From: a virus
DNA: 42,307 bases
Virus record (IMG/VR): IMGVR_UViG_3300037474_000239
Reading direction: 5' to 3' (one strand)
This document shows positions 6,985-41,484 of this stretch, one piece after another. Made by a program: the position numbers and the translations under genes. The notes under the pieces are model-generated. The model saw only the letters and a program-made list of their open reading frames with translations, made no database searches and was not told the origin of the DNA. Numbering within the stretch: the first letter of the stretch is position 1; each line of letters opens with the position of its first letter.

Positions 6985-7022
6985 AGCTTTGGCCTCTTCG
7001 GAAAAACCCTGCCGTCCCGATG

Positions 7023-7626: not shown

Positions 7627-7628
7627 CG

Positions 7629-23917: not shown

Positions 23918-23988
23918 CGCGGCCTCCATGGTGCCGTATTTGACGATCTTTCAGAATGCCATGCAACGGATCGGCCGTCAATGGGCCT

Positions 23989-24612: not shown

Positions 24613-25217
24613 CGTCTGCCTCCTTGGGCTACTGAGCGCCCGATGGTGCTCCACCAGGTCACCCGGTTCATGAAGTGCTCCATGGGGAAGAAGGGCCCCG
24701 GGTCCCAGTGGTCACTCATCTTGAAAGCCCGGGACACCGCGGCGTGGGTGGTGATCCCCCGCCGGCAGGCCTTCAGGCCGTCCTCATCCACCTGGGCCAC
24801 CGGGATCCCCCAGCGGCCGCAGATCCCAGCCGCGAGCCAGGCCGCCAGTTCCAACGCCTTGACCGAGAAGTCGTCGGCCCACTCCTCCGTCGTCTGCCTG
24901 GCCCGGCCGCAGATCTCGATCCCGATGGCGCGGCTGTTGGCGCCCGGGGCGTGCCAGGCGCGGTCGGTTTCGAGCACGCTCTGGGTGACGGAGTCGGCGT
25001 CCACGGCGTAGTGCCAGCTCGCCCTCCTGGCGTCCGGGGCCGCGCACCGCCGCATCAGGGCCTCCGCCCCATCCATTTCCTCCCCAACCTCGGCCGAGTG
25101 GATCACGACGAGGTCTATCGGCCGGGGCGCCGCGGGCCGGGTGAACCAGGTCGCCTGGAGGAACGGTATCCGCGCCGGCGGGGTGGCGGCGGGGAGGTCC
25201 TCCGCGGGATCAGGCAT
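24609..25217 (-). CDS. N-acetylmuramoyl-L-alanine amidase, Amidase_2/PGRP (T7-lysozyme-like) endolysin (202 aa; alternative start at 25274).
   Basis: DLVVIHSAE...ASWHYAVD...RAWHAPGANSRAIGIEICG...GITTHAAVS...DPGP. Confidence 0.8.
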   Translation of the reverse strand: MPDPAEDLPAATPPARIPFLQATWFTRPAAPRPIDLVVIHSAEVGEEMDGAEALMRRCAAPDARRASWHYAVDADSVTQSVLETDRAWHAPGANSRAIGIEICGRARQTTEEWADDFSVKALELAAWLAAGICGRWGIPVAQVDEDGLKACRRGITTHAAVSRAFKMSDHWDPGPFFPMEHFMNRVTWWSTIGRSVAQGGRR

Positions 25218-25485
25218 TCGGGCCGCCCGGAGTTCCGGCCTGGTCGTCTTCGTCCAGCCCTTCCCGAAGACCAACCAGGAAGACGCCCGAGGAGTTCTCC
25301 AGGAAGTCCTCGATCTTCTCCCAGAAGGCCCGGCCCAGCTTGTGGACGCCGATCGAGCTCGCGGCGCGACCGATGGCGAGTCCGGCGGCGCGCAGCTTGT
25401 CGTTGGGCAACAGGCGCGCGACCACGAACAGAAGGAAGGTGGCGCCGGCGCCGCTGAGGACGATGTTGGAGATGACGTCTTTCAT
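25210..25485 (-). CDS. Putative holin (91 aa).
   Basis: TM segment ISNIVLSGAGATFLLFVVARLL with a charged C-terminus. ATGA coupling upstream and an 8-nt overlap with the amidase gene. Confidence 0.5.
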   Translation of the reverse strand: MKDVISNIVLSGAGATFLLFVVARLLPNDKLRAAGLAIGRAASSIGVHKLGRAFWEKIEDFLENSSGVFLVGLREGLDEDDQAGTPGGPNA

Positions 25486-25817
25486 TGCGATCCCCTCCTG
25501 TGAAACAGGTTCAACAAGAATTCGGTCACGGCGATGGCTGCAGTGGTCAGGCCAACCACGGCGCTCGCCCACCGCCGGTGGGAATCCTCGTGGTCTCTTT
25601 GCTTCTGGCCAATGGCGCCGACGTCCTTTTTGAGGCCGACGATCTCAATTGAGTGCTCGCCGTGGGTCTGGTGATCCCGCTCGAGGTTCCTTTCGATGGT
25701 CTCAGTCAGCCTGTCGACGCTCTTGGTGAGGTCCTGGACGGACTGATGGGTGGCGGCCTGACCTTTCTGGAGTTCGCTGATCGCCTTCCACATACTTTCG
25801 CGGTCGTCTGCCATCAT
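25482..25817 (-). CDS. XhlA-like tail-anchored coiled-coil membrane protein (111 aa).
   Basis: N-terminal coiled coil (WKAISELQKGQAATHQSVQDLTKSVDRLTETIERNLE) plus a C-terminal TM (WASAVVGLTTAAIAVTEFLLNLF). Precedes the holin and amidase. Confidence 0.45.
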   Translation of the reverse strand: MMADDRESMWKAISELQKGQAATHQSVQDLTKSVDRLTETIERNLERDHQTHGEHSIEIVGLKKDVGAIGQKQRDHEDSHRRWASAVVGLTTAAIAVTEFLLNLFHRRGSQ

Positions 25818-26179: not shown

Positions 26180-27052
26180 CTATATCCCGGCGTAGATGAT
26201 GAAGACAATCCCAAGGCTCTGTGGCTCAGTTGTATGTCCAGTCCTTGGCGTTCCGTTGGTTCCGTCGGTGATTGGATCGCCAATACCTCCTGTAAAATTC
26301 GTTTGGTTGGTTGCATCAATCGTAGAATACCGTCCGTCAGAAAATGAGACTGATGGGCTCCAATTGACACTATTATTGTGATAGGCGGAATGCCTATGTC
26401 CCTGCATCTTGTCCTGGCTATAGGTTCCCAGCGTTGCCGCGTAAGCATTCCCGCTCGCGTCCACGCCTGCGGCCCTGTTCGTTGTCCCCTGGCCTTTGGG
26501 AAAGACGCCACGGAAGTCCGGGAGATTGAAAGTCGTTGAGCCGTTTCCCGTTCCAAACGTCGTACCAATGACAGCAAACAGTCTGGAATACGTCGTACGG
26601 GACACCGCTGAACCGTCGCAATTCAGCCAGCCAGAAGGGGCGGTCGTGTTCACATACATCACGACGGTTCCAACCGGATTTCCGGCGTAGAGGAGTCCGT
26701 TTATGGTGATCGTGTCTACATAAAGATTTGCCCATTCCCTTCCAGATGCCCCGAGATCAAAGATTGAGTCGCTCTCCGGCAGGACGTCGTGGAGGCGTCC
26801 TGATCCGTCGTTGTCGTGCCGGTGAGTCTCCATGAGATGGAATATCTTCTCGAGGTTACCGGCGGACGCCGGATCCTCGTTCTGAAACGGCGGCATCGCA
26901 GCCCGCGCGCCGGCGGCCGCCATGAACATCAGGATAGCGGCTGCCAGCCAGAGGATGGCCGGCGCCGGGGGAGGTGGGGGAACCCCCGGCGCCGGTTGGT
27001 CCAGGGGAAGCCCAGCGCGCCGGGCCTCCGTCCCCTGGGAAGCGCTCATCAT
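26180..27052 (-). CDS. Tail fibre with a phage tail-collar domain and an N-terminal Pro-rich segment plus hydrophobic anchor (290 aa).
   Basis: GTVVMYVNTTAPSGWLNCDGSAVSRTTYSRLFAVIGTTFGTGNGSTTFNLPDFRGVFPKG..TLGTYSQDKMQGHRH is the collar-domain signature. Marked GC drop: 26281-26340 has 26 G+C in 60 nt. Confidence 0.8.
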   Translation of the reverse strand: MMSASQGTEARRAGLPLDQPAPGVPPPPPAPAILWLAAAILMFMAAAGARAAMPPFQNEDPASAGNLEKIFHLMETHRHDNDGSGRLHDVLPESDSIFDLGASGREWANLYVDTITINGLLYAGNPVGTVVMYVNTTAPSGWLNCDGSAVSRTTYSRLFAVIGTTFGTGNGSTTFNLPDFRGVFPKGQGTTNRAAGVDASGNAYAATLGTYSQDKMQGHRHSAYHNNSVNWSPSVSFSDGRYSTIDATNQTNFTGGIGDPITDGTNGTPRTGHTTEPQSLGIVFIIYAGI

Positions 27053-30000
27053 CGGAGGATCACCGCTCTAGAACCCGGCCGGCGAGGCGGTGCCGATCTG
27101 GACCCTTGCCGGGCGGGACCGCCCGAGCCCACAACGTTCTTGGCGATGTCGGCCAGCTGGCTCGGGATCGGAATGCCGGCGATCGTGGCCAAGCTCTGGG
27201 CGAGATCGATCTTGCCCCGGTCCCGCGCCGCCGGGGTATCCCCCTTCGCAACCTGTGCGCCGCCCTTGATGGCTCGCGCGACGAGGTCGACAGACGGTGC
27301 GAACTCCCTCCCATAGAAAGCGGACATGATGTTCGACACGAAGGGCACGTTCGAAAGAAGGTTCTTTCCGACCTCATTCCAGTAGTCCCTGTTGTCGTCA
27401 TGGCCGCCGCTGAGGGCGTCCTTGACGACGCCGCGGATGCCGGTGGCGGCCATGACAGCCATGAGCGACCACAGGGCCGTGTTGACACCCTGAGCGATGT
27501 TCCCCTTCCCGATCCCAGTCCGAATGCCTTCGTGCGTGAGCAGGCTCCAATCGTTGAGGACGAAACTCTGGAACTGGAGGATGGCGCGGTCCAGGGAACG
27601 GTTCCCGGTGAGTCGGCCGCGCGTGAGCGCTTGCGGCGCGTCCTTGAAGGAGCTCGAGGACTGAGTCCGCCGCACCACCCGTTGCGCGTACTCAATGGCC
27701 TGCTGGTTCGGGTTCTCAAGGTCCATGGGGATTCCGCGGTCCGCCAGGAACTTCCGGTAGGCGCCGGCGGCCACGCTCCTGGCGGCGAGGATGTCCAGCT
27801 TCTGCAGCGGCATCAGCATGAGCTGGCCGGCCTTGTCTTTGATGCCCTGGCCGTTGAAGTCCAGGAAGGCGATGTCGTCGCCGGCGCGCTCACGCAGCTC
27901 CGGGAAGTTATCGATAATGAACTGCCGCCACGGCCGGCTCACCGCGATGTCGGTCATTCCCTGGAACACCCGTGGCCCGATGAGGGCTCCTCCCTGCAGG
28001 ATCGTTGTCGGCTGCACCAGCGCCGAACTCACGCGCAGCCCCAGGGCGGCGAGGCCGGCATTCCGCCGCAGGGCGTCCAGGACACGGATCTGCTGATCGC
28101 CGAAGCCTCCACCCTTCCTGGCAATGGTGTCGATCCACTCCCGCGCCATCCGCTGGCCGACGTTGCCAACGGCCTGACCGTATTCGGCGGAGCCGGCCAG
28201 TTCACCCAGATACTTGGCGGTGGGTCCGACGTTGATGAGGTAGGAGGCGTCGTCCACGTGCTTGAGGTAGACGTCGAGAGCGTTCAGGTTCACCTTCTGC
28301 TTGCCGGCGCCTTTTCGTTCCTTGGTGAACCCCTGCTCGGCGCTCTTCCGCAGGCCCGTCATTTCCGTCAGCATCCGGTCCCGGAGGTCCTGCTCCGACA
28401 TCTGGTCCCAGTCTGTCACGAAGGGGAAATAGTGCTGCACCTGACCGAGCTCGGCGTTATAGACCTTCCGCATGGTCTCCGCGATCCTGGGCCGGAGGCG
28501 GTCCAGGTTCTGGCGCATGTAGTTGTAGAACCCGGCCTCGGCCGGCGTGAGCTTGATGGCGCCGATGTCCTCGTCCGAGAGTCCGAGGTTATAGAGCTTC
28601 TGGCGGCCACCTTCCTGGTTGTCGATAGCGAAGACGCCGATCCGCTCCATGCTCTTCTCGTTGAGGCCGAGCTTCTGCGACCGGGCCCGCGCCTCCTCCC
28701 GCAGATTCATGGCTTCGTCGGCGTAGGTGCCAAAGGCGTTGTCGACCCTGGCCTTGAAGATGCGGTAGTTGGGCCCGGCGTAGTTTGCGCTGCCGTCCAT
28801 GACGTCGAAGACGACGTCCATGGGCGTGATGGCGTAGTGGGCGTTCTGGGCGGCGTTGTAGGCCCAGCGGAGGCCATTGCGGATGCGGTCCGAGATGGCC
28901 AGCTCCTGGCCCGGAAGCGCCCGGATCTGCTCCCTGGATTCGATGGGCGTGCTGCCGGCCATGATGTCGCCGATGTCGGACTCTTTCTGGGCGGAGTCGA
29001 TGGCCTGCATGGCCTCGAGCTTGGTCTTTCCCAGGTCAGCCAGGCGTTTGATCTGATCGAGGACGTCCTCGATCCTGGCCACCGGCATGTCGGCCAGCGG
29101 CCGGGCGGTGAGCGCCCTGATCTTGTCGACTACGTACTGGGGAACCTCTACCTGCTGGCCGGCTGCGCGGGCGTTGTTGATGGCGCGCTGGGTCTCTGCC
29201 AGGCGCGCCATGGTCTCGGCCCTGGGTTTGGCGAGGAGGACGTCCTGCATGAGCCCCTTCACCCGGCCCACGTAATCGACGGCGATGGACTTGGACGCGA
29301 TCACGCGCTCGAAGTTGCGCTTGATGCGGCCGATCAGTGTGCGCTTCTGCACCTGTTCAACGGCCTGGTCCACCCTCACCAGGGCCTTCGCAAGATCCTT
29401 TGGTGTGCGAGCGCTGGCGATGGCCTGGGCGAACTTGCCCCTAGCCTCTGGCGGCAGCACCTCTTTGACCTTGTCGGCCAGGCTCTTCTTGATGCGGTCC
29501 CGCTCAGCGCCCAGCCACCGCTCAGACATCTTGGCGTCGGCCTGGCCGGCCGTATATGCGGCCGCGGCGGCGCGAGCCTCCCGCTGGAGCGAGATCCGGA
29601 GAGCCTGGGCCTCGGTGTAGGTCCGTGGCATCCCCGCCCGGGACGGGAGGCGAGCCTTTTCCGTGTCCTGCTGGGCCAGATGCTCCGCCCTCTTCGCCTC
29701 AGCCATTGACCTGGCCGCCACCTCTTCCTGCCGGGCTACGCCCACCACGGGGTTGAACATCTCCGATAGCGGCGGCTCCGGGGCCTGGGTTCCGCCAGCG
29801 GCAGTCTCACCATTTCCCGGTGCCCGTCTCTCTATAGGCGCCCCCGTGTCAGGCCGGAACGATTTCGCCAGGAACGACTTCACCTCCAGCTCCTCCGAGG
29901 CCTTGGTCCAGTCCTCGTAGCTGGGGATCTCCGGCACTGGGATCCCGCGGGCCTGCAGTGTCTTGGCCGACACGGTGTCGCCGCTGGGAAGGTTGAAGAG

Positions 30001-31956
30001 AGGGATGGGAGGGATGACGCCGTCGCTGGAACCGGGGTTGTAGCCGATGAACTGCGGAGCAGCCGGTGCCGCGGGGCGGCTGGCGGAGGCCGGCGGCGCC
30101 GCCTTTTCGGCCTCGATGCCACCCAAGGACCGCCGGCCCTCGACGTATTTGTCCAGAAGGCTGGTGATGTAGGGGTCCGTGACGGCCGGCATCTTGAGGC
30201 TCTGGTTGACGATGGCCTGGCCGGCGCCCATCAGAAGCGGAAGGTCGTTGCCGAGCCGGGTCATATCGAGATTGCCGTAGGTCTTCTTGAAGGCCTCGAT
30301 GGCGGCGGCGCGCGCCTCCGCGGTCCGGGCTGTTCGGATGGCGTTCATGGCGGTGTGGATCTCCGCGCCCAGGCGCACGGCGGTCTGGGGGGTCATGTCG
30401 GCCCCGATCCGTTTGGCGTAGTCCCGGACCACCGCGTCTGCGTCGGAAAAGAACTTGACGAAGTTGGGATGGGCCCTTATACTTTCCGTGTATGGAACCG
30501 ACGGCTCAAGCATCGGCTTCTGGCCCTGGAAAGTTGGGTGAACAGGCATCTCGCCTGCAGGAGTATCTGTTCTACCCTCCGGCGACACCGGAATCTCTGG
30601 CCGGGAAAGAGCTGTGGGATTCTCCCTGGTTTGAGCGCTGGTCCCGGCTTCGGGAGCAGCTGACGGCGGAAGGCCTGGTTGACCAGCAGGGCCTTGTGCC
30701 GGCGCCGGTGCTCCAGAAGTATTCGCCTCTGTTCCAGCGGCCGGCGTAGCCTCGGCCGCACCCCCACCCTCTCCAGCCACACGATCCGACGCCTCCGCCC
30801 CGGCAAGCGCCGGCAGGCTCTCATGGATCGCCCCTGCCCCGAGGCCCACGATGCCGCCGATTCCGGCCGCATCCAGCGCCTTGCGCCAGTCCACTGGCCT
30901 ACCAGCCGTGAAGTCCTCGATCACCGATTGGCCGGCCTCCTGCAGGCCCTCCATGGAAGCCGACCGGATCTCTCCCATGACGTGACCCACCTGCTTGGCA
31001 TCAAAAATGCCGCTGAGCTTGTTGGTCACGGTCAGAAGCAGCAGGTTCCCCCAGAAACTCGCATCGGCCCGCTGGGCCGCCTCTTCCCGCGGCACCCCGG
31101 CCGCCAGCTGGTCCATGAACTGCCCGCCAGACTCCGAGGCCGCCTCCAGGAGAGTGGACGCACCGGCGCCCACGGCCGGCGCCAGGCGGAGGGCCAGGGG
31201 GCCCAGGGTCGCCGCGGCTCCGGCGCCGCGGGCGATGCCCATGCCGGGGATCAGGAAGACGGCGGAAGAAGTAGCGCCCTGAACCACCTTGTCCACGAAG
31301 TTCTGTTCGTCCGGAGCCAGGTCCTGGGACAGCTGCCCCAGCTTCTTGGCGAAGGCCTCCACCGGCCTCGCCAGTCGCCCGCCCACACCCGCGCGCTCGG
31401 CCAGGAGCGGAACGGCGCCGGCCATCCCCGCGGCGGTCCCCAGCAGGCCGGCGCCGACGTCCCCAGCTACCCGCTGGGCCCTGGGGTCATTCAGGATCGC
31501 ACGCGGGGCGAAGGGCTCAGCCGCGCCGCGGACCACGTCTTGGGTGGATGCGGGCGCCCGGGGAAGGGGCGGCAAGGCGCGGCGTGTCAGGTCAGCGGCC
31601 GCGGCGGCGGCGCGTTCAAAGAACCCAGGGCCCCCGGCCGAGTCAGGGGCCCCAGGAATGGGTGCGAGGCTGCCGGAACCGGCCTGCGGCGGGGCTGGTG
31701 GTGTGGGCGGAGGGGTTGGGGCACCCACGGCGGCGCGGCGGGCCGCTAAGCGGTCGAAGACGTCGCCGCCGGATGCAGCGGGCGGCGTGGGGCCAGCGGG
31801 CTGTTGGCGGGCGGCCGAGACCCTGTCGAAGATGTCCCCTTCCGGCGCGCCTGGCGCCGGGGCCGATGGTGCGCCGCCGGGCCCGGAGGCCGGCGGCGCG
31901 GCGGCCGGCCGCTGCCGGCGGCGCTTCTCCTCGATGAGGTCGAAGACGTCCGGCAT
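27049..31956 (-). CDS. Giant virion-associated protein (1635 aa), T7 gp16-like by position (internal/ejection protein). P/A-rich N-terminus and Gly/Ala-rich hydrophobic helices.
   Basis: Uninterrupted high-GC3 ORF. Sits between core-like genes and the fibre. No catalytic motif recognised by eye. Confidence 0.5.
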   Translation of the reverse strand: MPDVFDLIEEKRRRQRPAAAPPASGPGGAPSAPAPGAPEGDIFDRVSAARQQPAGPTPPAASGGDVFDRLAARRAAVGAPTPPPTPPAPPQAGSGSLAPIPGAPDSAGGPGFFERAAAAAADLTRRALPPLPRAPASTQDVVRGAAEPFAPRAILNDPRAQRVAGDVGAGLLGTAAGMAGAVPLLAERAGVGGRLARPVEAFAKKLGQLSQDLAPDEQNFVDKVVQGATSSAVFLIPGMGIARGAGAAATLGPLALRLAPAVGAGASTLLEAASESGGQFMDQLAAGVPREEAAQRADASFWGNLLLLTVTNKLSGIFDAKQVGHVMGEIRSASMEGLQEAGQSVIEDFTAGRPVDWRKALDAAGIGGIVGLGAGAIHESLPALAGAEASDRVAGEGGGAAEATPAAGTEANTSGAPAPAQGPAGQPGLPPSAAPEAGTSAQTRENPTALSRPEIPVSPEGRTDTPAGEMPVHPTFQGQKPMLEPSVPYTESIRAHPNFVKFFSDADAVVRDYAKRIGADMTPQTAVRLGAEIHTAMNAIRTARTAEARAAAIEAFKKTYGNLDMTRLGNDLPLLMGAGQAIVNQSLKMPAVTDPYITSLLDKYVEGRRSLGGIEAEKAAPPASASRPAAPAAPQFIGYNPGSSDGVIPPIPLFNLPSGDTVSAKTLQARGIPVPEIPSYEDWTKASEELEVKSFLAKSFRPDTGAPIERRAPGNGETAAGGTQAPEPPLSEMFNPVVGVARQEEVAARSMAEAKRAEHLAQQDTEKARLPSRAGMPRTYTEAQALRISLQREARAAAAAYTAGQADAKMSERWLGAERDRIKKSLADKVKEVLPPEARGKFAQAIASARTPKDLAKALVRVDQAVEQVQKRTLIGRIKRNFERVIASKSIAVDYVGRVKGLMQDVLLAKPRAETMARLAETQRAINNARAAGQQVEVPQYVVDKIRALTARPLADMPVARIEDVLDQIKRLADLGKTKLEAMQAIDSAQKESDIGDIMAGSTPIESREQIRALPGQELAISDRIRNGLRWAYNAAQNAHYAITPMDVVFDVMDGSANYAGPNYRIFKARVDNAFGTYADEAMNLREEARARSQKLGLNEKSMERIGVFAIDNQEGGRQKLYNLGLSDEDIGAIKLTPAEAGFYNYMRQNLDRLRPRIAETMRKVYNAELGQVQHYFPFVTDWDQMSEQDLRDRMLTEMTGLRKSAEQGFTKERKGAGKQKVNLNALDVYLKHVDDASYLINVGPTAKYLGELAGSAEYGQAVGNVGQRMAREWIDTIARKGGGFGDQQIRVLDALRRNAGLAALGLRVSSALVQPTTILQGGALIGPRVFQGMTDIAVSRPWRQFIIDNFPELRERAGDDIAFLDFNGQGIKDKAGQLMLMPLQKLDILAARSVAAGAYRKFLADRGIPMDLENPNQQAIEYAQRVVRRTQSSSSFKDAPQALTRGRLTGNRSLDRAILQFQSFVLNDWSLLTHEGIRTGIGKGNIAQGVNTALWSLMAVMAATGIRGVVKDALSGGHDDNRDYWNEVGKNLLSNVPFVSNIMSAFYGREFAPSVDLVARAIKGGAQVAKGDTPAARDRGKIDLAQSLATIAGIPIPSQLADIAKNVVGSGGPARQGSRSAPPRRPGSRAVILR

Positions 31957-32894
31957 CAGAGCTTATACCCCATGGCCCGGGCCGCGGCCCTGGCGCGCTC
32001 CTTGTCACCACCGACAGCCTCCAGCAGCTGCAGGGCCTGCTCCTCGCTAAGTTGGGCACCGGCCGCCGGAGCCGGTCCAGTGGCCGCTGGAGCGGAAGGG
32101 GCCGAAACATCACCTCCGATCTTCAGGGTATCGGCTGTCACCCTCCCCGATTCCCCGCCAGGAATGGTCCTTTCCAACCAGCCGATGAACCCGGGCTTGT
32201 TGACCTGCTCCTGGACCGTCCGCCACGGCAGGCCGAAGTGCTGCGCCGCCAGGATCGCGGCGTCCTGAATCTCGGGAGTGATCGGAAGGGGATTGCCGGT
32301 CTTGCGGTCTATCGCCGAGGCGGCGTGGTAGAACTGGGCCAGGGCAAGGCGGTGGGCCTCGTCTTCGGGGGTTCTCGGAGGCTGCCGCGGCGCCGGCTCG
32401 CGGGAAAGGACAACGGTATGGTCTTCGCTTCCCTTCCAAGGCATGGTTCTGATGAGCTTCCCGTTGGGATCGAAGACGTAGAGTTGGGAAGCCTGGCTCT
32501 TGGTCACCGTTGGATCGTAGGTCAGGACCTCGTTGCCCGCCGGGATGTCGCTGATCGTCCGGTAGTCTCCGGTCTCCTTGTTGAGGAGGGTGTAGCCCTT
32601 GGCGAGGCGGATGGGGGCCTTCTCCGGGCGGACCTCTGTTGTCGGGAATGTCGTGATCGGAACGCCCTCGTCCGTCGTTCCTTCAACCTTGGGAGTGATA
32701 TCCGTCCGGGCCTCACGGCCAGTTCTCACGGCCGCAGGAACGATCCCGGTGCGCATGTAATCTTTGACGGCGCTGTTGTAGGTGGCTTCGTCCTGGAGGA
32801 GCTGGGGATTCTTCTGAACGATGTCGTTCCATTCCTGCCGGCGTTTTTCCTTCTTCCCGCCAAGGCTGTAGTCGATCAAGAGTTGGGGTGGCAT
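31956..32894 (-). CDS. Virion-module protein (312 aa), gp15-like by position.
   Basis: ORF track. TGATG coupling to the 1635-aa gene. Confidence 0.45.
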   Translation of the reverse strand: MPPQLLIDYSLGGKKEKRRQEWNDIVQKNPQLLQDEATYNSAVKDYMRTGIVPAAVRTGREARTDITPKVEGTTDEGVPITTFPTTEVRPEKAPIRLAKGYTLLNKETGDYRTISDIPAGNEVLTYDPTVTKSQASQLYVFDPNGKLIRTMPWKGSEDHTVVLSREPAPRQPPRTPEDEAHRLALAQFYHAASAIDRKTGNPLPITPEIQDAAILAAQHFGLPWRTVQEQVNKPGFIGWLERTIPGGESGRVTADTLKIGGDVSAPSAPAATGPAPAAGAQLSEEQALQLLEAVGGDKERARAAARAMGYKL

Positions 32895-32994
32895 TCCCGG
32901 CGCCCTCCTGCTAGGATTGACGTGTTACGCACTCGTCAGAAGACATGGCTACGAATATCCCTGTCGCCGCTGAACGAACACAGAGAGGCCAACG

Positions 32995-33237
32995 ATGAAA
33001 CCAGCGCTTGCTGCACTCCTCCTGCTCGTCGGATGCTCCGCGAGCTACCTCGGCTTGACCAAAGCGCAACTCGTCGACCGGCATGGCGTTCCCAACCGCA
33101 CAGTGAAGCTGGACGACGGCGGCGAGGCCTGGGAGTACGAACCCAAGATCACCTATCTTTTCCGCAACGGTGTGGTGGTCGAGCGGAAAAGACACTGGTC
33201 GTTCGGCGTGTCCGTTAATGACCACGGGGATCGCTGA
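32995..33237 (+). CDS. BamE/SmpA-OmlA-like outer-membrane lipoprotein (80 aa). Opposite-strand moron inside the tail module.
   Basis: MKPALAALLLLVG|CSAS lipobox. LGLTKAQLVDRHGVPN...GGEAWEYE...YLFRNGVVV matches the BamE-like pattern. AGAGAGG RBS. High GC3 on the plus strand. Confidence 0.65.
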   Translation: MKPALAALLLLVGCSASYLGLTKAQLVDRHGVPNRTVKLDDGGEAWEYEPKITYLFRNGVVVERKRHWSFGVSVNDHGDR

Positions 33238-33239
33238 GA

Positions 33240-33935
33240 TCATGTCCCCAGCCTGATCTGGATGTTGTCCGCGATGTTGCGCAGGATCCCAGGGTTTCTC
33301 TGCGTCGCCTGCGCCTGTTGTCCCGCCCCCGTCGTCAGATTCCCCGCCAGCCCCAGCCGCCGCTGCATCTCTCTATCCGCATTCCCCGTCAGTCCCTGCG
33401 CATACTGCGACAGTAAGTTCCCCGCCTCCTGCTCTCCCATCTGGTAGCGCTGGCCGTAGGCGTCCCGCGCCGCCTGATCCCGCGCGCTCAGACGGTCGAG
33501 GTTCGCCATGTACATCTTGGTGTAGGCGTCCGACGCCGCGCGGCCGCCGGATGAGGCGATCTGGGCGAGAGCGTTGCCGGCGATGTCAGAAGAGCTGCCG
33601 TCTCCGGTCAGCCCCTTCAAGTACTGTTCCATGATCCCCTGACCGAAACGCTGCCTGGTGTCACGCTCGATGTCGTTGAGGGTGTTATTGAGCCCCGTCT
33701 GGTCGACCTCACTGCGGACCTGGTCCACCGAAGACGGTGCCTGGATGGAATTGATGTAGTCGCTGAAGGTGCCGCCGCCGGCGAGGCCGCCGGCCCGGTC
33801 CGTGGCCTCCCGGAGGAAGTCGTAGTTCACCGCGGGCGCGGCATCGCGCAGGAAGTCGAGGTTCGGCGGCTTGTAGGTTGTGCTGCTTCCGCCGCCGAAG
33901 AGCGCCCGGCCGGCGTTGCTCAAGAAATTCGCCAT
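33240..33935 (-). CDS. Virion-module protein (231 aa), gp14-like by position.
   Basis: AGGGGGA RBS. Gly/Gln/Ala-rich. Confidence 0.45.
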   Translation of the reverse strand: MANFLSNAGRALFGGGSSTTYKPPNLDFLRDAAPAVNYDFLREATDRAGGLAGGGTFSDYINSIQAPSSVDQVRSEVDQTGLNNTLNDIERDTRQRFGQGIMEQYLKGLTGDGSSSDIAGNALAQIASSGGRAASDAYTKMYMANLDRLSARDQAARDAYGQRYQMGEQEAGNLLSQYAQGLTGNADREMQRRLGLAGNLTTGAGQQAQATQRNPGILRNIADNIQIRLGT

Positions 33936-33943
33936 TTTTCCCC

Positions 33944-36661
33944 CTATTCCGGCACTACGTCCGGCGTAAAGTCCAAGGTCGCGCCGAGGATCCGCCAGAA
34001 CGTCGTGCCGGAGACCGCAAACTTGACGCTGATGTTCCGCCCCGACTGGGCCTGCGAGAACGGGAACGATAGACGGAAGTTCTGGATGCCCGCGTCCTCG
34101 TTCATGACCTGGCTGGCGAGGCTGTAGTCGGTGGAAGTGTCGCCGTTGAGCTGGAAGGTCGAGGCGAGCGTCTGGGCGCTCAGCTCCGTGGTGACCTCCA
34201 GGTCGTCGTAGGCGTTGGAGAGGTTCGGCCCGGACGGCGAGTATGTGGCCGTCCTGAAATACGCCGAGATCGCTGATCCCGCGTCGGCGTAGGCGGTCTC
34301 ATATTGGAAGACGCCGCTTGAATTCCCGAAGAAGAGGTTGCCGTTGTAGAGCACCAACGACGCCGCGCTGATCCCGCTATACCTCTGCCATTGGCGGTTG
34401 CGGTCGAAGACGATCACGCGGTTGTTGCTGGTCGAATTCTGAGATACTCCAAGCCAGTAGCGCTGTCGGAACCAGGTCGACGGGGTCTTCGTCGTGTTGC
34501 CCTCCGACCAGGACAAGGTCAGGCTGTGGTTGGTGGGGTTCTGAGTCGACACGGCGATCGTCTCCGTTTCCCCCACGCGGACGTAGGCCGACGTCGAGAG
34601 CGTGATGAAGGATCCAGATGTGATGGTCTGGCTCGAGACGAATTGGGCCGTGGGGACACCGTTGGTGATGGTCATGACGGTATCGGTATCGGTGTAGACC
34701 GCGTACGCCACAGTCCCGCCGTCGGCAGTCGTGTCGGCGCCAAAGGTGCCCCATGAGGTGGGGGACCCCGTGGCGATCGAGGAAGAGATGAAGGCGCCGT
34801 AGTTGGCCCGGGCGGCCAGGGTGACGTCGTCCAGGAACGGCAGCGCCGTGCCGTTGGTGCTGTTTCCCGTGGAAATAGTGACCACCCATCGAATGTAGCG
34901 GCGGAAGTCGGACGCCGGCGCGCTGCCCGTGGACCACGCCACCGCCGTCTGCCAGGTCGACCCGTTGGACGACGACTGGGTCTGCATGGTGATGGAGTGC
35001 CCATTCGTGGTCCAGCTCGCGCCGGACGATAGCCAGGCCGCGCTCGTGAGGGATGTGTCGAAGGCCTGGGACGAAAGCGTTCCCGAATAGATCGAGGAGC
35101 GGCCGCCGCCGAAGTTGTCGTAGGCGACGATGGCGTTGCTGCCCTGGGAGTAGGCGTAGAACGTCATCGTGCCGCCGGAGCACAGGAACGTTGCGGTCTT
35201 CACGCCGGAGCCGTTTTGACGGTAGGAATTGATCTTGATGTAGCGCCCTACGTAGGCGGAGAGGTCCACCGTGATCGGATTCCAGGCGCAGGTCGTCAGC
35301 GACGTGAAGTTGTATGGTGTCGCGAGGATGTTGCCCGCGGCATCTTGAATCTCCACTAAGATGGAATCGCTTCCGATCGGCGCAAGGCCGGTGGCACCCA
35401 CGAAAAACGAACCGCTTTGTGGACTGATGGTCCCGCAGGCTGTCCCCGTCAGGCTCGCCACTCGTGAGAGAGACGTCAGCGTCCACTCCGAGCCAACGGC
35501 GCTCTCGAAGCTGCCGTTGTCGACGGCGGTGTTGCTGGTCGAAAGATAGACCCGGTTGTCGACGACCGTGACGTTGGACGAAGACGTGAAGGCGTTGAAG
35601 TCCGCCGTGGCGGTGTCGGTGCGGGTCCAGGTGGTGAGCATGATGTCGCCGCTGACGATGGCCGAGGACTTCTGATATAAGGTGCCGTTGTTGTAGTCGG
35701 ACTGGGTGGTGAGGGTGAAGGAGCGGGAATTCGCGTCACCCTGGCCGATCTGGGACAGATACCCCTTGATGTTCTTGCCGATGTTCTCCAGGTGAGAGCC
35801 ATTCCACTCGTAGATGGTCCGGGCCGGGCCCAGCCACCGCAGGAGACCGTCGCAGTCGCGGATGCTATCGGGATAGGCGGTGCCTACGTTGTCAGAGTAG
35901 GTCCGGACCGTGAAGTCGGCGCGGCTGTTGCCATCGATGACGCCGAAACTCATGGATTTCATCCAAACGATGGCGTCACGGTGGCTTGAGTATAGGGCCG
36001 TCAGTGGTTCGTCTACGGCGCCTCCAATGACGAACTGAGCTGGATCCGTCACGGCCGGGTCCACGACCAGGTCCCAGCTCGTGCCGTCCCCGAACTTCGA
36101 GGCGAAGACCGTGCGCGGGAACGAACTATGCCCGGCGGCCCACAGGCGGTTCTTGTGGGCCACCAGCTGGGTGATCTTGAGGGAGGCCGATGCCACCACC
36201 ACGGAGCTCGTGTCCCAGTATTTGAGGCCGTCGGTGGTGCTGGCGAAGAAGAACTTGTCGCCCAGGACCGCGGCGGTGACGTTGATGTTGGCGGCGACGG
36301 TTGAGACCGTGATGCCGAAGCTGCAGCTCCCGGTGTCGGCCTTGAGCACGCCACCGCTCTGGATGATCTGATAGCGGGTGCCGTTGGAATGGGGGAAGAC
36401 CCAGGCGGCGGTGGCGGAAGAGGCGTTGCAGAGGGTGAAGCCATACCGCGGCGAGAGGCCCGGGCCCTCGTCAGTGACGACGTTCTCCGCGTCCGGCGTC
36501 TGTCCATCCGTGAGCGTGGCGGGGCTGTAGTCGGTATTGAGACCGGAGAATTGGTTGATGATGACGGTCTCGGACGTCGCCGGCGCCGCGCCCAGAAGGG
36601 CGATGCCCAGGACAGTCCAGATCGGCCCAAGGCGTGCCAGTTTCATGAGCCTCGCACCCAT
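33944..36661 (-). CDS. Tail nozzle/tubular-protein-B-like protein (905 aa; alternative ATG at 36646) with a signal-like N-terminus and a central carbohydrate-binding-like insert.
   Basis: MGARLMKLARLGPIWTVLGIALLGAAPATSETVIINQFSGLNTDYSP... Propeller-like KFFFASTTDGLKYWD and NRLWAAG. Size and order follow the adaptor-like gene, as in T7 gp11-gp12. Confidence 0.45.
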   Translation of the reverse strand: MGARLMKLARLGPIWTVLGIALLGAAPATSETVIINQFSGLNTDYSPATLTDGQTPDAENVVTDEGPGLSPRYGFTLCNASSATAAWVFPHSNGTRYQIIQSGGVLKADTGSCSFGITVSTVAANINVTAAVLGDKFFFASTTDGLKYWDTSSVVVASASLKITQLVAHKNRLWAAGHSSFPRTVFASKFGDGTSWDLVVDPAVTDPAQFVIGGAVDEPLTALYSSHRDAIVWMKSMSFGVIDGNSRADFTVRTYSDNVGTAYPDSIRDCDGLLRWLGPARTIYEWNGSHLENIGKNIKGYLSQIGQGDANSRSFTLTTQSDYNNGTLYQKSSAIVSGDIMLTTWTRTDTATADFNAFTSSSNVTVVDNRVYLSTSNTAVDNGSFESAVGSEWTLTSLSRVASLTGTACGTISPQSGSFFVGATGLAPIGSDSILVEIQDAAGNILATPYNFTSLTTCAWNPITVDLSAYVGRYIKINSYRQNGSGVKTATFLCSGGTMTFYAYSQGSNAIVAYDNFGGGRSSIYSGTLSSQAFDTSLTSAAWLSSGASWTTNGHSITMQTQSSSNGSTWQTAVAWSTGSAPASDFRRYIRWVVTISTGNSTNGTALPFLDDVTLAARANYGAFISSSIATGSPTSWGTFGADTTADGGTVAYAVYTDTDTVMTITNGVPTAQFVSSQTITSGSFITLSTSAYVRVGETETIAVSTQNPTNHSLTLSWSEGNTTKTPSTWFRQRYWLGVSQNSTSNNRVIVFDRNRQWQRYSGISAASLVLYNGNLFFGNSSGVFQYETAYADAGSAISAYFRTATYSPSGPNLSNAYDDLEVTTELSAQTLASTFQLNGDTSTDYSLASQVMNEDAGIQNFRLSFPFSQAQSGRNISVKFAVSGTTFWRILGATLDFTPDVVPE
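36640..36661 (+). repeat. Copy C of the 22-nt dispersed motif: GTTTCATGAGCCTCGCACCCAT.
   Basis: Overlaps both candidate start codons of the nozzle-like gene on the opposite strand. Confidence 0.9.
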
Positions 36662-36680
36662 CAGAGCGACCCCTGGCCGG

Positions 36681-37424
36681 TCACCGCGGCGCCGCCTGCA
36701 CAGACGGGGTGTAGTTCGGGGCGGCGCCAAACCGGGCCGACATGGTTTGGACGTAGCGCTCGTACTCCTTCAGGTAGAACTGGGACTCATCGAACTTGCC
36801 CTGAATGGCCTTGATCTTCGCCGTCACTTGGGCCACGATGACGTAGTGGTATGGCTTCAGGTGATTGAAGCCGTCGAAGGGCACGTCGGAGTCCGACGCC
36901 ATGTCCGAGGGGAAGTAGGCATACCAGACCTTCACCGTCCCGGTGGACGATGTCACCGGTACCGGCACGTAGGCGATCTCCAGGGCGTCGTTCGAATTCC
37001 CGGGGTAGCGGGTGAAGTAGTGGTCCGGCGTGCCGGAACTGGCCGCCTCGAAGTTGGCCTCGTCCTGGTAGACCTTCCGGAAAGAGAATTCATCGAGCCG
37101 CGTCGTTAGGCCAGAAGTGTCCGTGAAAGTCACGAGCTTTGCGGCGATGAAGTTGGACGGCAGCGCGTAGTAGGTCGTCCCCACCGTGAGGGCATAGGAC
37201 GTCGACGTTTCCACGCACCAGGTGAGGTTCACCACCTCCCGCTGCGCCTCATTGATCCAGTCGTCGAGGATGGCGTCCGAGTAGCGGTTTCCGGACGTGG
37301 CGGTGTCGCGGACGTTCCTCCGGATCTGGGTCTCCAGGTCCGCGAGTGTGAGCGCCCGCGCGCCGGCCGGCAGCAACGCCGCCAATCCCAGGGCAAGAAG
37401 AAGCGCTCTGCGAAGCCTTTGCAT
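36681..37424 (-). CDS. Tail adaptor/tubular-protein-A-like protein (247 aa) with a signal-peptide-like N-terminus.
   Basis: GAGGAGG RBS 8 nt before ATG 37424. MQRLRRALLLALGLAALLPAGARA|LTLADLETQIRRNVRD... Confidence 0.4.
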   Translation of the reverse strand: MQRLRRALLLALGLAALLPAGARALTLADLETQIRRNVRDTATSGNRYSDAILDDWINEAQREVVNLTWCVETSTSYALTVGTTYYALPSNFIAAKLVTFTDTSGLTTRLDEFSFRKVYQDEANFEAASSGTPDHYFTRYPGNSNDALEIAYVPVPVTSSTGTVKVWYAYFPSDMASDSDVPFDGFNHLKPYHYVIVAQVTAKIKAIQGKFDESQFYLKEYERYVQTMSARFGAAPNYTPSVQAAPR

Positions 37425-37438
37425 GGCCAGCCTCCTCG

Positions 37439-37867
37439 TCAGGACGGTCCGTTTCGCCGCGACAGCTCCTGGAAGTGCAGGTTCTCGGCCGCGGTGTGGA
37501 GCGAGAGGACCCACAGGCAGACGTCGCCGCCGAGCTGGTAGGTTCGGTCGGGCTCTCCCTTGACGAGCTCGATCGGCCGGACAGTCGTGGCGATGCTGGT
37601 CGACGTGCAGTTGCCGACGTGGGCGACCATGTTGGCGTTGTTTGATGCGGGAACGTCCAGGACGACCTCGGTGCGACTGTTCAGGGTGCGGCTGCTGGGC
37701 ACCTTGGTCCAGGCCGAGGTCGAGATGGACACGGTCGTGGGGGTGCCGTAGCGGGAGATCGAAGTCACGATGACCTGGGCAGGCTCCGCCGCGGCCGGCC
37801 GGGCCACCGAGATGGCCGCCATGACCAGGACCCCCCACAGGGGGGGAATGTGTATTTTCATTCTCAT
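37439..37867 (-). CDS. Hypothetical secreted-looking protein (142 aa).
   Basis: AGGAGA RBS. MRMKIHIPPLWGVLVMAAISVARPAAA|EP. Confidence 0.5.
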   Translation of the reverse strand: MRMKIHIPPLWGVLVMAAISVARPAAAEPAQVIVTSISRYGTPTTVSISTSAWTKVPSSRTLNSRTEVVLDVPASNNANMVAHVGNCTSTSIATTVRPIELVKGEPDRTYQLGGDVCLWVLSLHTAAENLHFQELSRRNGPS

Positions 37868-37877
37868 GGACGATCTC

Positions 37878-38534
37878 CTAGTGCGGGCAGGCGCCGGTGC
37901 CGGTGGAGACCGTGATGGAGGTCTGCACCGTCCCGGACGCCACGCACACCACCCCGTTCGTCGTGTCCTGGAACCTGGTGCCGATCGGGATGGGGTATGC
38001 CGTGTAATAGGCGGCCACATCCGACGCGGTCCGCGGCGCCGTGCTGGTGATCGCGCCAGTGAAGATCGGCATGATCGTCGTCTGGGCGGTCCCGGTGGAC
38101 ACGGAGAACACGTTCAGCGTCGTATCCAGGAACGGCGTCCCGGCCGGGATCGTGTACGCGGAGTAGAGCGCCGCCACGGCCGCCGCCGTTCTCGGCGCCG
38201 AACTCGTGACCACGCTCGCTCCCGCGGACGATGTGATGGGGCCGGAGAAGTTGCCCAGGACCCCATAGACGTTGGAGAACCGGAGCGAACTCGTTCCCAA
38301 CGCGTTGGTGTTGTCCGTGCCCGGCACCAGGTTGGCCGCTCCGATGGAGTTTCCGGAGGTGATCTTGAACTGGTACGTGTTGTTGCGACTGCCCTTCCCG
38401 AACCAGCCCGTGATGAGCCCGATCTCCTGTGCGGCATGGACGATGGCGGGGGCCAACAGGTTCCCCACAACGCCCAGGCCGAGACCCAGGGTCAGGACGG
38501 CCAGTATGAGGCCGAGCTTCTTGAAGTGCCGCAT
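37878..38534 (-). CDS. Fibre-like protein (218 aa) with an N-terminal hydrophobic anchor and an internal roughly 45-aa tandem repeat.
   Basis: MRHFKKLGLILAVLTLGLGLGVVGNLLAPAIVHAA. Repeat units SSAPRTAAAVAALYSAYTIPAGTPFLDTT..VSTGTAQT and STAPRTASDVAAYYTAYPIPIGTRFQDTT..VASGTVQT. Confidence 0.5.
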   Translation of the reverse strand: MRHFKKLGLILAVLTLGLGLGVVGNLLAPAIVHAAQEIGLITGWFGKGSRNNTYQFKITSGNSIGAANLVPGTDNTNALGTSSLRFSNVYGVLGNFSGPITSSAGASVVTSSAPRTAAAVAALYSAYTIPAGTPFLDTTLNVFSVSTGTAQTTIMPIFTGAITSTAPRTASDVAAYYTAYPIPIGTRFQDTTNGVVCVASGTVQTSITVSTGTGACPH

Positions 38535-38540
38535 GGCGCC

Positions 38541-38858
38541 CTACTCCTGCGCCGGCTGCCCGCCGGCGGCCTTGGCCTTGTCGGCCTGCGCCTTCGCTTC
38601 CTTGGCGGCCCTGGCCTTCCGCTGCATCTTGGTCTCCGGCTGCCCGCCGGCGGCCTTGGGGCCGTCGTACAGCAACACCACCAGGACCTGGCTGTAGCTG
38701 TTGGGCTTGACGTCGCCGGAGATCCCGATGTTCCGGACCTCCGCCTTGGGGTTGGCGTCCAGGAAGCCCTGGACAGCCTGGTCCACCCGGACCGAGATGC
38801 TCTTGTTCTCCCCGCGGGCGGCGGGGGACGATTCCACGAGAAGCGTTTTGACGTTCAT
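38541..38858 (-). CDS. Hypothetical protein (105 aa) with KAAGGQP x2.
   Basis: ATGA coupling. A 24-nt direct repeat in the coding DNA (about 38555 and 38639). Confidence 0.5.
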   Translation of the reverse strand: MNVKTLLVESSPAARGENKSISVRVDQAVQGFLDANPKAEVRNIGISGDVKPNSYSQVLVVLLYDGPKAAGGQPETKMQRKARAAKEAKAQADKAKAAGGQPAQE

Positions 38859-39343
38859 GCCACGATCCTCCTGTCTTCCCGAAGGTCAACGATCTTGCCG
38901 GCGTTCGGGTCGTCCGGCTCGCGTTCGCGGCGGAGGTTCTTGAGCCTGTCTTCCAACTGCCTCCGCCTCTGGTTCCTCGCCTGGTCCACCAGGGTGTCGA
39001 CCACCTTGTGGTAGTCCTTGGAGTCCGCGCGTTTGAGGTGGAAGTGCTGCGCCGGGACGACGTCCTTACGCAGCTCCTCCTCGATCTCTCGGATCTCCTT
39101 GTCGCGGGCCCGCCTGTAGGCGGCCGTCTCGTCATGGGGCGATCCGGCGTCCAGGATCGCCTGGAGCCGCTTGCGCTTCTGCGCCGTCACGACGGGGTCG
39201 TGGTTGCTGTCCCGCGGGTTCTGGTACCAGACGTCACCGACCCCAACGTCCGACGCCCCCACGCCGAGAGGGCCTTCGCCCAGCTCGGCGCGGAGTTGGT
39301 CGCGCTCCGTGGTGGTGAGGATCCTGCGCCTCGGCGGTCGCAT
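38855..39343 (-). CDS. Arg/Glu-rich hypothetical protein after the capsid gene (162 aa).
   Basis: ATG at 39343, 2 nt after the capsid stop. The longer ORF 38855..39895 in the track is an out-of-frame overlap with the capsid gene. Confidence 0.5.
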   Translation of the reverse strand: MRPPRRRILTTTERDQLRAELGEGPLGVGASDVGVGDVWYQNPRDSNHDPVVTAQKRKRLQAILDAGSPHDETAAYRRARDKEIREIEEELRKDVVPAQHFHLKRADSKDYHKVVDTLVDQARNQRRRQLEDRLKNLRREREPDDPNAGKIVDLREDRRIVA

Positions 39344-39345
39344 GA

Positions 39346-40245
39346 TCAGCTCACCGCGTGCCCGTACGTCCAGAACGGGTCGGCGCAACCGATGCCGTAG
39401 AAGCTGTAGACGACCCAGCGGGACACGAGCGAGGACAGCTCCTTGTCCTTCAGGGTCAGCTTCTTCTCGACGTTGAACCAGTACATCGCCTCCTTCATCC
39501 GGGCCTTGTTCAGCATCCCCCAGTTGTTGGTGTCGGCGATGACCCGGGACTCGATGACGTCGAACTGACCGTAGTAGTAGTTCGTGTTGTTGGTCACGGC
39601 GTCGGGCTTGCCCTTGGAGCCGACGATCTCGTTGGCGTAGGCGCACATGTCCGACGGCACCCAGATCGCGTCCGGCTTCCGATCGAAGAGGGGCTGGTCG
39701 TTGGGGCTGTTGAACTTCTTCATCAGAACCACTGTCGCGTCCACCGAGGAGTAGGCGAGCTCGGACGTCCCGAGGTTGCCCTGGTTGGAGCCGCCGACGT
39801 TGGAGGTGTGCGCGGTGTGGTACAGAGCCAGGGTGTCGCCAACCGTGAAGGTGGAGAAGCCCAGGTTCGCCCAGGCGTAGGTGGATGTGATCCACCGCAG
39901 CGGGAGCGCTCGGGAGAGGGCCTTCAGGCTGGACTCCACCACCGCCACCTGCTGCGTCTTGATGAGGCGGTACTGGATGGAGGTTCCCTTCACGTACTCC
40001 ACCATGGAGATGTTCTTCCGGTAATTCTGCTTCGCGCCTTCGAAGGCGATCTGCCCGGTGAAAGGCTCCGCCGCGCCGAGGTCTCCCGTAGTCAGGATCG
40101 ACTCGGTTTCCCGGTCGGTGTCCTTGACGGTGAAATACTTGCCAACCTCTTCCGGCACGTCGCCGGTCCAGGTGTCGATCTTCTTGCGGACCGAGGCGTC
40201 GATCGCGTCGGCCCAGTTCGCTTGTGTGGCTGGGGTTGCGGGCAT
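39346..40245 (-). CDS. Major capsid protein, HK97-fold-like (299 aa).
   Basis: Strong AAGGAGGAG RBS. Size and position. Capsid-like segments YFTVKDTDRETESILTTGDLGAAEPFTGQIAFEGAK and C-terminal WVVYSFYGIGCADPFWTYG. Confidence 0.7.
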   Translation of the reverse strand: MPATPATQANWADAIDASVRKKIDTWTGDVPEEVGKYFTVKDTDRETESILTTGDLGAAEPFTGQIAFEGAKQNYRKNISMVEYVKGTSIQYRLIKTQQVAVVESSLKALSRALPLRWITSTYAWANLGFSTFTVGDTLALYHTAHTSNVGGSNQGNLGTSELAYSSVDATVVLMKKFNSPNDQPLFDRKPDAIWVPSDMCAYANEIVGSKGKPDAVTNNTNYYYGQFDVIESRVIADTNNWGMLNKARMKEAMYWFNVEKKLTLKDKELSSLVSRWVVYSFYGIGCADPFWTYGHAVS

Positions 40246-41154: not shown

Positions 41155-41484
41155 TCAGAACCTGGTTACTCGCCTCCTGGTCATGGACAAGAGCGGCCTC
41201 ACGCGCCGCCTGTTCAGCGTCTTCGAGTCGGTCCGGCGTGGATTTGCCATCGCCGCCCACCGGAAGCGTCCGCAGCATGGGCAACCGGCCCTTGCTTCCA
41301 CGCTCGAGACGACACTGCTGGCCGTCGTCACCACGTTCCCGTCAGCCACGTTCTCCGGGGCCGTGTTGGACCTCAGCCTCGCGTTCACCGGGAACCCGCA
41401 CCAGCGGCACTTATAGCGGCCGGTGATGCCAAGCTGCTTGCCGTTCCCCCCTCCGGTGACGATGTCGACGAATCCGTAGGCCAT
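41155..41484 (-). CDS. Zinc-ribbon protein with an Arg-rich tail (109 aa) in the head module.
   Basis: GGAGGA RBS. CRWCG ... CPCCG. High GC3 throughout. Confidence 0.5.
   Translation of the reverse strand: MAYGFVDIVTGGGNGKQLGITGRYKCRWCGFPVNARLRSNTAPENVADGNVVTTASSVVSSVEARAGCPCCGRFRWAAMANPRRTDSKTLNRRRVRPLLSMTRRRVTRF

Follow-up and report, generated by a model that had tools for sequence, protein, structure and literature searches.

The window analysed here is the whole 42,307-nucleotide stretch of IMG/VR virus record IMGVR_UViG_3300037474_000239, a phage genome of 65% G+C in which a run of tail genes begins with N-termini resembling Sec signal peptides. An exact direct repeat of 127 bp at 1-127 and 42181-42307 indicates that the contig is complete, being either circularly assembled or terminally redundant. 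The late genes occupy the minus strand between 6984 and 1 and continue from 42307 to 23594; the late operon thus runs across the window ends. The late gene order is T7-like: portal, a scaffold-like protein of 241 amino acids (aa), capsid (299 aa), proteins of 162, 105, 218 and 142 aa, tail adaptor (247 aa), tail nozzle (905 aa), three internal proteins (231, 312 and 1635 aa), a Collar-domain fibre (290 aa) and lysis genes.

Signal-like N-termini of the tail genes

A sequence-only reading of the window had described four adjacent leftward genes with Sec-signal-like N-termini. All four are present as quoted, on the minus strand, and each N-terminus has a positively charged n-region (net charge +2 to +3), an uncharged hydrophobic core and small residues at positions -3 and -1 of a predicted cleavage point, marked below by a slash. 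The first gene of the block encodes the 218-aa protein (37878..38534), which begins with MRHFKKLGLILAVLTLGLGLGVVGNLLAPAIVHA/AQE and is signal-like over residues 1-34 (38433-38534). The 142-aa protein (37439..37867) begins with MRMKIHIPPLWGVLVMAAISVARPAAA/EP, residues 1-27 (37787-37867) forming a predicted signal peptide with the site AAA/EP. In the adaptor (36681..37424), which begins with MQRLRRALLLALGLAALLPAGARA/LTLADLETQIRRN, the predicted signal peptide spans residues 1-24 (37353-37424) and ends at ARA/LTL. In the nozzle (33944..36661), which begins with MGARLMKLARLGPIWTVLGIALLGAAPATS/ETVIINQFSGLNTD, it spans residues 1-30 (36572-36661) and ends at ATS/ET.

The earlier assignment of two of these proteins as the adaptor and nozzle of a T7-type tail was right, as indicated by a Pfam match for one and a fold match for the other. 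The adaptor (SU10/T7 gp11 type) matches Pfam PF24175 (SU10_adaptor) with E=3.4e-23 and 83.5 bits, well over the gathering cutoff of 27, and its residues 26-230 align with profile positions 2-182 of 194. Since profile position 2 falls on residue 26, the mature-like sequence does start right behind the hydrophobic stretch. In the window and in all fetched relatives, the adaptor gene lies directly upstream of the nozzle gene within the portal-capsid-tail module. The nozzle (T7 gp12/P22 gp10/SU10 gp17 type) has no match in Pfam, and sequence searches of the nozzle and of the adaptor profile against PDB chains gave nothing significant; at sequence level the nozzle matches phrog_3287 'virion structural protein' weakly (E=1.5e-6) and nothing else. 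Its AlphaFold model, built from 29 homologues, has a predicted local distance difference test score (pLDDT) of 80.5, with residues 1-27 below 50 and the fold beginning at about residue 31. Among PDB structures, Foldseek puts podovirus nozzles in about the first 27 places, including those of Pa223 (E=5e-17), LME-1, Pan3, P22 (gp10), PhiM1, T7 (gp12) and SU10, in agreement with a beta-propeller nozzle fold. The matches have a probability of 1.00 and E from 5e-17 to 1e-8; template modelling scores are modest (0.2-0.5) because the protein has several domains and the lengths are unequal.

The starts of these genes bear on whether the hydrophobic segments are translated. Strong ribosome-binding sites precede them, as previously noted: GAGGAGG lies 7 nt upstream of 37424, and AGGAG lies before 38534 and 37867. 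Neither the adaptor nor the nozzle has an in-frame ATG, GTG or TTG between the hydrophobic stretch and the conserved mature sequence (the first mature codon of the adaptor is CTC). Public gene calls for the 142-aa gene and the nozzle differ, being 127 aa and 900 aa from JGI and 142 aa and 905 aa from Logan. The 900-aa nozzle call, from a downstream Met, retains the hydrophobic core; the 127-aa call loses most of the n-region and part of the core. That one gene caller took a downstream Met for both genes, and that high-G+C DNA encodes Ala/Leu/Gly-rich peptides, could be taken to mean that the true starts lie downstream and that the hydrophobic stretches are untranslated or products of chance. 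Such an artefact is scarcely credible given the missing start codon between extension and mature part in the adaptor, the strong Shine-Dalgarno sequences before the upstream ATGs, and an extension that is in frame in 24 of 24 adaptor and 29 of 29 nozzle homologues and in relatives down to 35% G+C; on starts, Shine-Dalgarno sites and conservation it was ruled out. A composition artefact was likewise rejected: relatives at 35-51% G+C keep the feature, and its presence across relatives of 35-66% G+C means that it is not an effect of high G+C. The signal-like character of the N-termini is confirmed and is stronger than first stated.

Conservation and distribution of the extensions

Signal peptides were called by a simple rule, which asks for an n-region of net positive charge, a core of eight or more uncharged residues whose Kyte-Doolittle mean is 1.7 or higher, and small residues at -3/-1. 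The rule recovers nine of nine textbook E. coli/M13 signal peptides. In the window it flags four of the five external tail genes versus two of 25 other late-strand genes (p=0.003). With six genomes pooled, 31 of 32 external tail genes are signal-positive versus 8 of 103 for all other genes, with a Fisher p of 6e-22 that is descriptive only because orthologues are not independent. The eight signal-positive genes outside the tail set are plausibly lysis or lipoprotein-type genes.

Whether homologues carry the same extension was a question raised with the original observation, and in both proteins they do. An extension is present in all 24 full-length members of a set of 26 adaptor homologues (41-100% identical). 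It is 18-29 aa long (mean 21.9), with an n-region of net charge +1 to +3 in 24/24 and an uncharged run of 11-21 aa, and it is directly followed by an invariant LTL(S/A)(D/E)IETQIRR. Position -1 is A in 19, S in 2, G in 2 and C in 1; position -3 is A in 15, S in 5, G in 2, C in 1 and L in 1; position -2 is bulky (R, H, F, K, Q, Y or W). All 29 nozzle homologues, 31-65% identical to the window nozzle, have a signal-like N-terminus, on average 21.4 aa long and ending 5-6 residues before a conserved QFGGLNTD motif. Their n-region carries a net charge of +1 to +3 in 27/29, position -1 is A in 23/29, position +1 is E, D or Q in 23/29, and small -3/-1 residues occur in about 25/29. Across the adaptor and nozzle extensions the uncharged runs measure 11-21 aa, with Kyte-Doolittle means of about 1.2-2.8. 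This agrees with a Sec-type signal, in which some 7-15 hydrophobic residues stand in a peptide of about 18-30; the 218-aa protein is the exception.

These dimensions are relevant to the possibility that the segments are uncleaved signal anchors. Tail proteins would then be tethered with the N-terminus in and the C-terminus out, using the inner membrane as an assembly platform, and would be freed or clipped at lysis. Such tethering would suit the 218-aa protein, whose 26-residue uncharged stretch is matched in the orthologue of relative L019, and the long n-region ahead of the core in the window fibre. The cores of most adaptors and nozzles, however, comprise 11-18 uncharged residues with the c-region included, and an uncleaved anchor would not select for the small -3/-1 residues conserved in 24/24 adaptors and about 25/29 nozzles. 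Anchoring would also leave the bulk of each protein in the periplasm, so that the separation of heads from tails would be unchanged. It is considered unlikely.

The extensions are poorly conserved in sequence. Identity is 24% in the adaptor extension versus 57% in the next 30 columns, and 29% versus 51% in the nozzle; a pattern kept while the sequence drifts is expected of signal peptides and is the opposite of what a structural helix would show. K or R occurs within mature positions +1 to +6 in 19/148 signal-bearing adaptors and is absent there in 129/148. Four signal-free adaptors (P0165, P0180, P0181 and P0184; MNRGEIRDEIRR...) begin exactly where the mature sequence begins, all with R at position 2-3. 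An extension-free nozzle (MSQIVRSRSVVLQQFTGGLNN...) starts at the corresponding point, which bears out the claim that the mature-like nozzle sequence lies right behind the hydrophobic stretch. In both proteins, then, the predicted extension ends exactly where extension-free homologues begin.

The same evidence makes it very unlikely that the proteins are never exported and that the hydrophobic helices remain part of tails assembled in the cytoplasm, with a function in the virion or during infection such as insertion into the host envelope. Retained helices would preserve the textbook account of cytoplasmic assembly, and podovirus tails must breach membranes. Yet a functional helix should be at least as conserved as the rest of the protein, and the extension is its least conserved part. 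Retention would provide no reason for a conserved signal-peptidase-type site or for the scarcity of K/R behind it, nor for an extension that stops exactly at the N-terminus of signal-free homologues, and in the AlphaFold model of the nozzle residues 1-27 stay apart from the fold. Moreover, signal-like N-termini in the bacterial cytoplasm are normally captured by the signal recognition particle or SecA.

Two other classes of signal were considered and rejected. A twin-arginine translocation signal, marked by S/T-R-R-x-F-L-K at the n/h boundary, could be suspected from RRALLL in the window adaptor. In homologues, however, the pair is replaced by KK, RK, KR or a lone K/R, and the nozzle lacks a conserved RR. 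For a lipoprotein signal (signal peptidase II; lipobox L-[AS]-[GA]-C with Cys at +1), no conserved Cys occurs at the site in the four proteins or in the adaptor and nozzle homologues; lipoboxes in the window occur only in other genes, at 7330-7707 (minus strand) and 32995-33237 (plus strand).

The remaining external tail proteins show the same tendency. The mature part of the 218-aa protein weakly matches phrog_7121 'tail fiber protein' (E=2e-4) over a tail-fibre/tailspike segment, and in its orthologues from L019, L020, L021, L005, L009 and L003 an n-region rich in K/R leads into a hydrophobic core, behind which lies a conserved G(K/T)G(S/T)R(N/R)NT motif. The 142-aa family, with no match in Pfam or PHROGs, is signal-positive in L019 (147 aa, ...APARA/AN), L020 (132 aa) and L021 (132 aa, ...GVRA/EL). 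Searches of Pfam and PHROGs with the window copies and nine orthologues of these two proteins gave, as a clue to function, just the weak tail-fibre segment match of the 218-aa family. The tail fibre (26180..27052, minus strand; Pfam PF07484 Collar, E=3e-24) had also been said to carry a hydrophobic segment. That segment, ILWLAAAILMFMAAAGARA, is present, with its core at residues 33-51 and a predicted site ARA/AMPPFQ (~26900-26956); it stands, however, only behind an atypical 32-residue Pro-rich N-region. The fibre start overlaps the upstream stop as ATGA. Fibre orthologues located after the giant internal protein (L019, L020, L021, L015 and L016) have short classical signals ending just before (M)PPF/PPY, and the fibre is signal-positive in all five relatives where it is readable, e.g. 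MTKISGLILFLMASPALA/TMPPFQ and MKMMMTFLFLLLPATLIA/ATPPY. In the window fibre (26896-27052), an in-frame ATG lies exactly at the predicted mature N-terminus (MPPFQ), making a signal-free fibre isoform conceivable in this genome only.

The distribution of the trait was followed in relatives from NCBI metagenome assemblies, JGI, Logan and IMG/VR. In every relative the signal-positive block is unbroken: it opens with the gene that follows the two small post-capsid genes, ends with the nozzle gene and comprises 2-7 genes per genome; in one relative, a Beta_helix (pectate-lyase-like) protein within the block also bears a signal. Portal, scaffold, capsid and post-nozzle internal proteins are never signal-positive, save one borderline post-nozzle match in L017. 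As controls, L010, L011 and L037 were used, three distant genomes whose adaptor lacks a signal; no neighbouring structural open reading frame in them has one either, and the recognisable nozzle of L010 is signal-free and starts 12 residues before the matching FTGGLNN motif. This all-or-none co-occurrence, controls included, indicates that the trait is concerted across the tail set and defines a clade.

An exhaustive profile search returned 2,398 adaptor relatives, 167 of them at E<=1e-30, and 132 of 148 further top adaptor cluster representatives are signal-positive, the remainder being mostly fragments. The adaptor, two nozzles (window and L009) and the portal had no match among 50,697 phage records, in which the L006 nozzle had weak partial matches only, over no more than 21% of the query. 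For the large terminase, identity to Roseobacter and Vibrio phages is just ~31%. A scan of GTDB genomes found just two remote relatives, both signal-free, in metagenome-assembled genomes, and IMG/VR loci for the signal-free adaptors P0181 and P0184 amounted to one remote locus and none, respectively. All relatives are on phage-sized contigs, literature searches by accession gave nothing, and by sequence comparison no cultured relative was found. The trait is thus wider than the sequence-only reading held: it takes in every external tail gene, including the fibre in relatives, and belongs to a large uncultured clade. In L020 (6734-9237), the tail block with signals is interrupted, between its fibre-like proteins and the adaptor, by a lysis cassette encoding a 103-aa holin-like protein, Amidase_2, DUF1353 and a 138-aa protein that bears a signal.

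The breadth of this distribution also bears on the idea that an exported pool of tail proteins moonlights, with a non-exported fraction building virions in the cytoplasm. Possible tasks of the exported pool include masking or destroying receptors from inside, superinfection exclusion, loosening of capsule or biofilm, and hiding from cytoplasmic immune sensors. The integrase of a temperate phage, the signal-bearing Beta_helix protein of one relative and the plausibility of envelope-acting roles for fibres and spikes are in keeping with such tasks. However, each genome has one adaptor and one nozzle copy and no internal start for a signal-free isoform, neither protein has a known envelope activity, and precursors retaining a hydrophobic signal would be poor building blocks. 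The all-or-none pattern across the tail set is better explained by co-localisation for assembly, and moonlighting is regarded as quite unlikely.

Place of tail assembly

The comparisons above establish that the segments are built like signal peptides, where they stand with respect to the mature domains, that they are conserved, and that they are distributed in an all-or-none manner. Of the three roles originally proposed for the segments, namely export signal, membrane anchor or cleaved pro-peptide, the evidence favours a predicted cleavable Sec export signal, and it is quite probable that the tail proteins are exported and cleaved. The open reading frames scanned with Pfam gave no match to a phage protease or peptidase. 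The balance tips modestly towards segments that act as cleavable Sec/signal peptidase I signals and would place the whole external tail set in the periplasm, with heads joining at the holin breach.

In this scheme, the phage would put a signal on every virion protein outside the capsid: the two small tail proteins, the adaptor, the nozzle and the distal fibre. Each would be threaded unfolded through the host SecYEG translocon and trimmed at the AxA-like site by the host signal peptidase, leaving a mature N-terminus like that of ordinary signal-free adaptors and nozzles. Folding of the tail proteins, and perhaps some pre-assembly, would follow in the periplasm, in a host with a diderm envelope. 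Portal, scaffold, capsid and internal or ejection proteins are signal-free, and heads would accordingly be built and filled in the cytoplasm. With signal-free head parts and exported tail parts in two compartments, the two would come together either at the moment of inner-membrane opening by the holin or afterwards in the lysate, and not before. The openings made by lambda-type holins let proteins through and would plausibly admit capsids as well. The place of tail assembly is something we infer, and, granted export, late joining of heads and tails across a breached membrane has an even or slightly better prospect. The fuller proposal, an uncultured clade in which filled heads would be cytoplasmic, the complete external tail Sec-exported and periplasmic, and infectious particles formed only at the holin breach, falls a little short of an even chance.

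The head side of this scheme is represented by several signal-free genes on the minus strand. The major capsid protein (39346..40245; 299 aa) belongs to the precomputed Pfam family Phage_capsid_4 and has an N-terminus that is not signal-like. The conserved 162-aa and 105-aa genes (38541..39343), which lie between the capsid gene and the signal-bearing block and are kept in all relatives, encode N-termini that are not hydrophobic, and by position the proteins are head-completion candidates. The three post-nozzle proteins of 231, 312 and 1635 aa (27049..33935) are all signal-free and occupy the position of the T7 gp13-16 internal/ejection proteins. The lysis genes (24609..25572) comprise an Amidase_2 endolysin (E=4e-24) and, upstream, a small holin-like membrane protein (25210-25482) with the transmembrane-like segment ISNIVLSGAGATFLLFVVARLL. 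The endolysin has neither a hydrophobic N-terminus nor a signal, and lysis should therefore need a hole-forming holin.

Several points weigh against periplasmic tail assembly. P22 heads without gp4, gp10 or gp26, and their T7 equivalents, leak DNA; because DNA normally escapes from a podovirus head with no adaptor and nozzle, this clade would need another seal. No plug protein was identified. The signal-free 162-aa and 105-aa proteins, encoded after the capsid gene, are positional candidates for a seal, and signal-free relatives likewise have a small gene in that slot. The AlphaFold model of the 162-aa protein is helical (pLDDT 65) and found no match with Foldseek (E>3), so that portal sealing is neither supported nor excluded for it. 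Periplasmic disulfide folding was rejected as a reason for export, as there are no conserved cysteine pairs, the adaptor having one Cys and the nozzle one invariant Cys. The 26-aa uncharged run of the 218-aa protein is long for a cleaved signal and more anchor-like, and the window fibre, whose Pro-rich n-region is specific to the window, fails the signal rule. The signal calls themselves rest on that simple rule and the classical -3/-1 criterion, and a diderm host envelope is suggested by the lipobox proteins and the short signal length. A new assembly route split between two compartments has a substantial chance of being what the trait reflects.

Several other genes of the window deserve mention. 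It also encodes a tyrosine integrase, ParB, a small terminase, a Cpn10-like protein and an SU10-type portal, and the integrase predicts a temperate phage. A full tRNA-Thr(TGT) gene (7022-7094, minus strand) lies beside a lipobox protein (7330-7707, minus strand; ...SLLGGC) and the tyrosine integrase (8179-9117, plus strand); this stretch may be the attP region and could point to the host. The 229-aa protein at 3824-4513 (minus strand), with a C-terminal Cpn10/GroES domain (E=7e-12), is kept near terminase and portal in relatives and may be a phage co-chaperonin. A small conserved protein (41155-41484, minus strand) has a CxxC...zinc-ribbon-like motif, GITGRYKCRWCGFPVNAR; in all relatives its gene separates the portal-side genes from the scaffold-like one.

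Further observations concern the internal and lysis regions. The giant internal protein (27049-31956, minus strand; 1635 aa) has no Pfam domain in the window; its counterparts in relatives measure 2116-2284 aa and carry RadC (L019 14849-21199, L020 14764-21567 and L021 14045-20899), and that of L017 has a faint ART-PolyVal match as well. On the opposite strand, between two internal-virion-protein genes, an 80-aa open reading frame (32995-33237, plus strand) encodes a lipobox, MKPALAALLLLVGC..., and is moron-like, perhaps an exclusion lipoprotein expressed by the prophage; L019 has a 171-aa opposite-strand gene in this slot. The lysis region ends with a 111-aa protein (23594-23929, minus strand) that matches no family. 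Its signal peptide, MEAAMKKMLVITLAALIPFASA/HAEY, is clean, and it may resemble a spanin or assist lysis from the periplasm.

Comparison with known phage systems

Virions of tailed phages are held to assemble in the cytoplasm, where the podovirus adaptor and nozzle join the portal straight after packaging and stop DNA from escaping. A clade with export signals on all external tail proteins challenges this view. If the two-compartment route is real, this would be the first tailed phage to build its tail away from the cytoplasm, and some separate means of retaining DNA in tailless podovirus heads would be implied. The phage might gain by keeping armed tails out of the cytoplasm, by attacking the envelope from inside or by avoiding cytoplasmic sensors. 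No report of a signal-bearing adaptor, nozzle or fibre in a tailed phage was found in the literature, in which coverage of subscription journals was partial, and this absence is not proof. There are also practical consequences. Gene callers and annotators may trim or misplace signal-bearing starts, as one pipeline did here; recombinant expression of such tail proteins should leave out the signal; and in metagenomic phage annotation a signal peptide should not exclude a virion role.

Phage proteins that reach the periplasm through Sec signals, signal-anchor-release (SAR) domains or lipoboxes offer one likeness; they include the T4 antiholin RI, SAR endolysins, spanins, T5 Llp and lambda Bor and Lom. 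For RI, a cleavable signal is described (PMC8385771). These exported lysis and exclusion proteins differ in not being virion components, whereas here the exported set would be the tail itself. The window encodes lipobox and signal proteins outside the tail block too.

Virion proteins that bear signals or enter the host membrane are known from other phages. In PRD1 and PM2, some virion proteins are first inserted into the host inner membrane. These proteins end in an internal viral lipid membrane of virions with a double-jelly-roll capsid, unlike the HK97-like capsid (Phage_capsid_4) encoded here, and no sign of a viral membrane was found in this phage. The pIII and pVIII proteins of Ff/M13 are alike in being virion proteins with cleavable Sec-type signals, and both are positive by the signal rule; host signal peptidase processes them before assembly. 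Ff/M13 differs in being non-tailed, with a membrane-inserted coat and virions that are extruded through the envelope without lysis and without filling of a cytoplasmic capsid.

In its parts the module is like the podovirus tails of T7, SU10 and P22, with which the window shares the adaptor family, the nozzle fold and the gene order of portal, scaffold, capsid, adaptor, nozzle, internal proteins and fibre. Adaptor and nozzle are gp11 and gp12 in T7, gp11 and gp17 in SU10, and gp4 and gp10 in P22. Podovirus tails described so far are added to filled heads in the cytoplasm. The SU10 tail consists of the portal, an adaptor dodecamer, a nozzle hexamer, a needle and fibres (PMC9509320). The difference lies at the N-termini: the Pfam adaptor model starts at the mature part, whereas the external parts of the tail described here are all encoded with a Sec-type signal.

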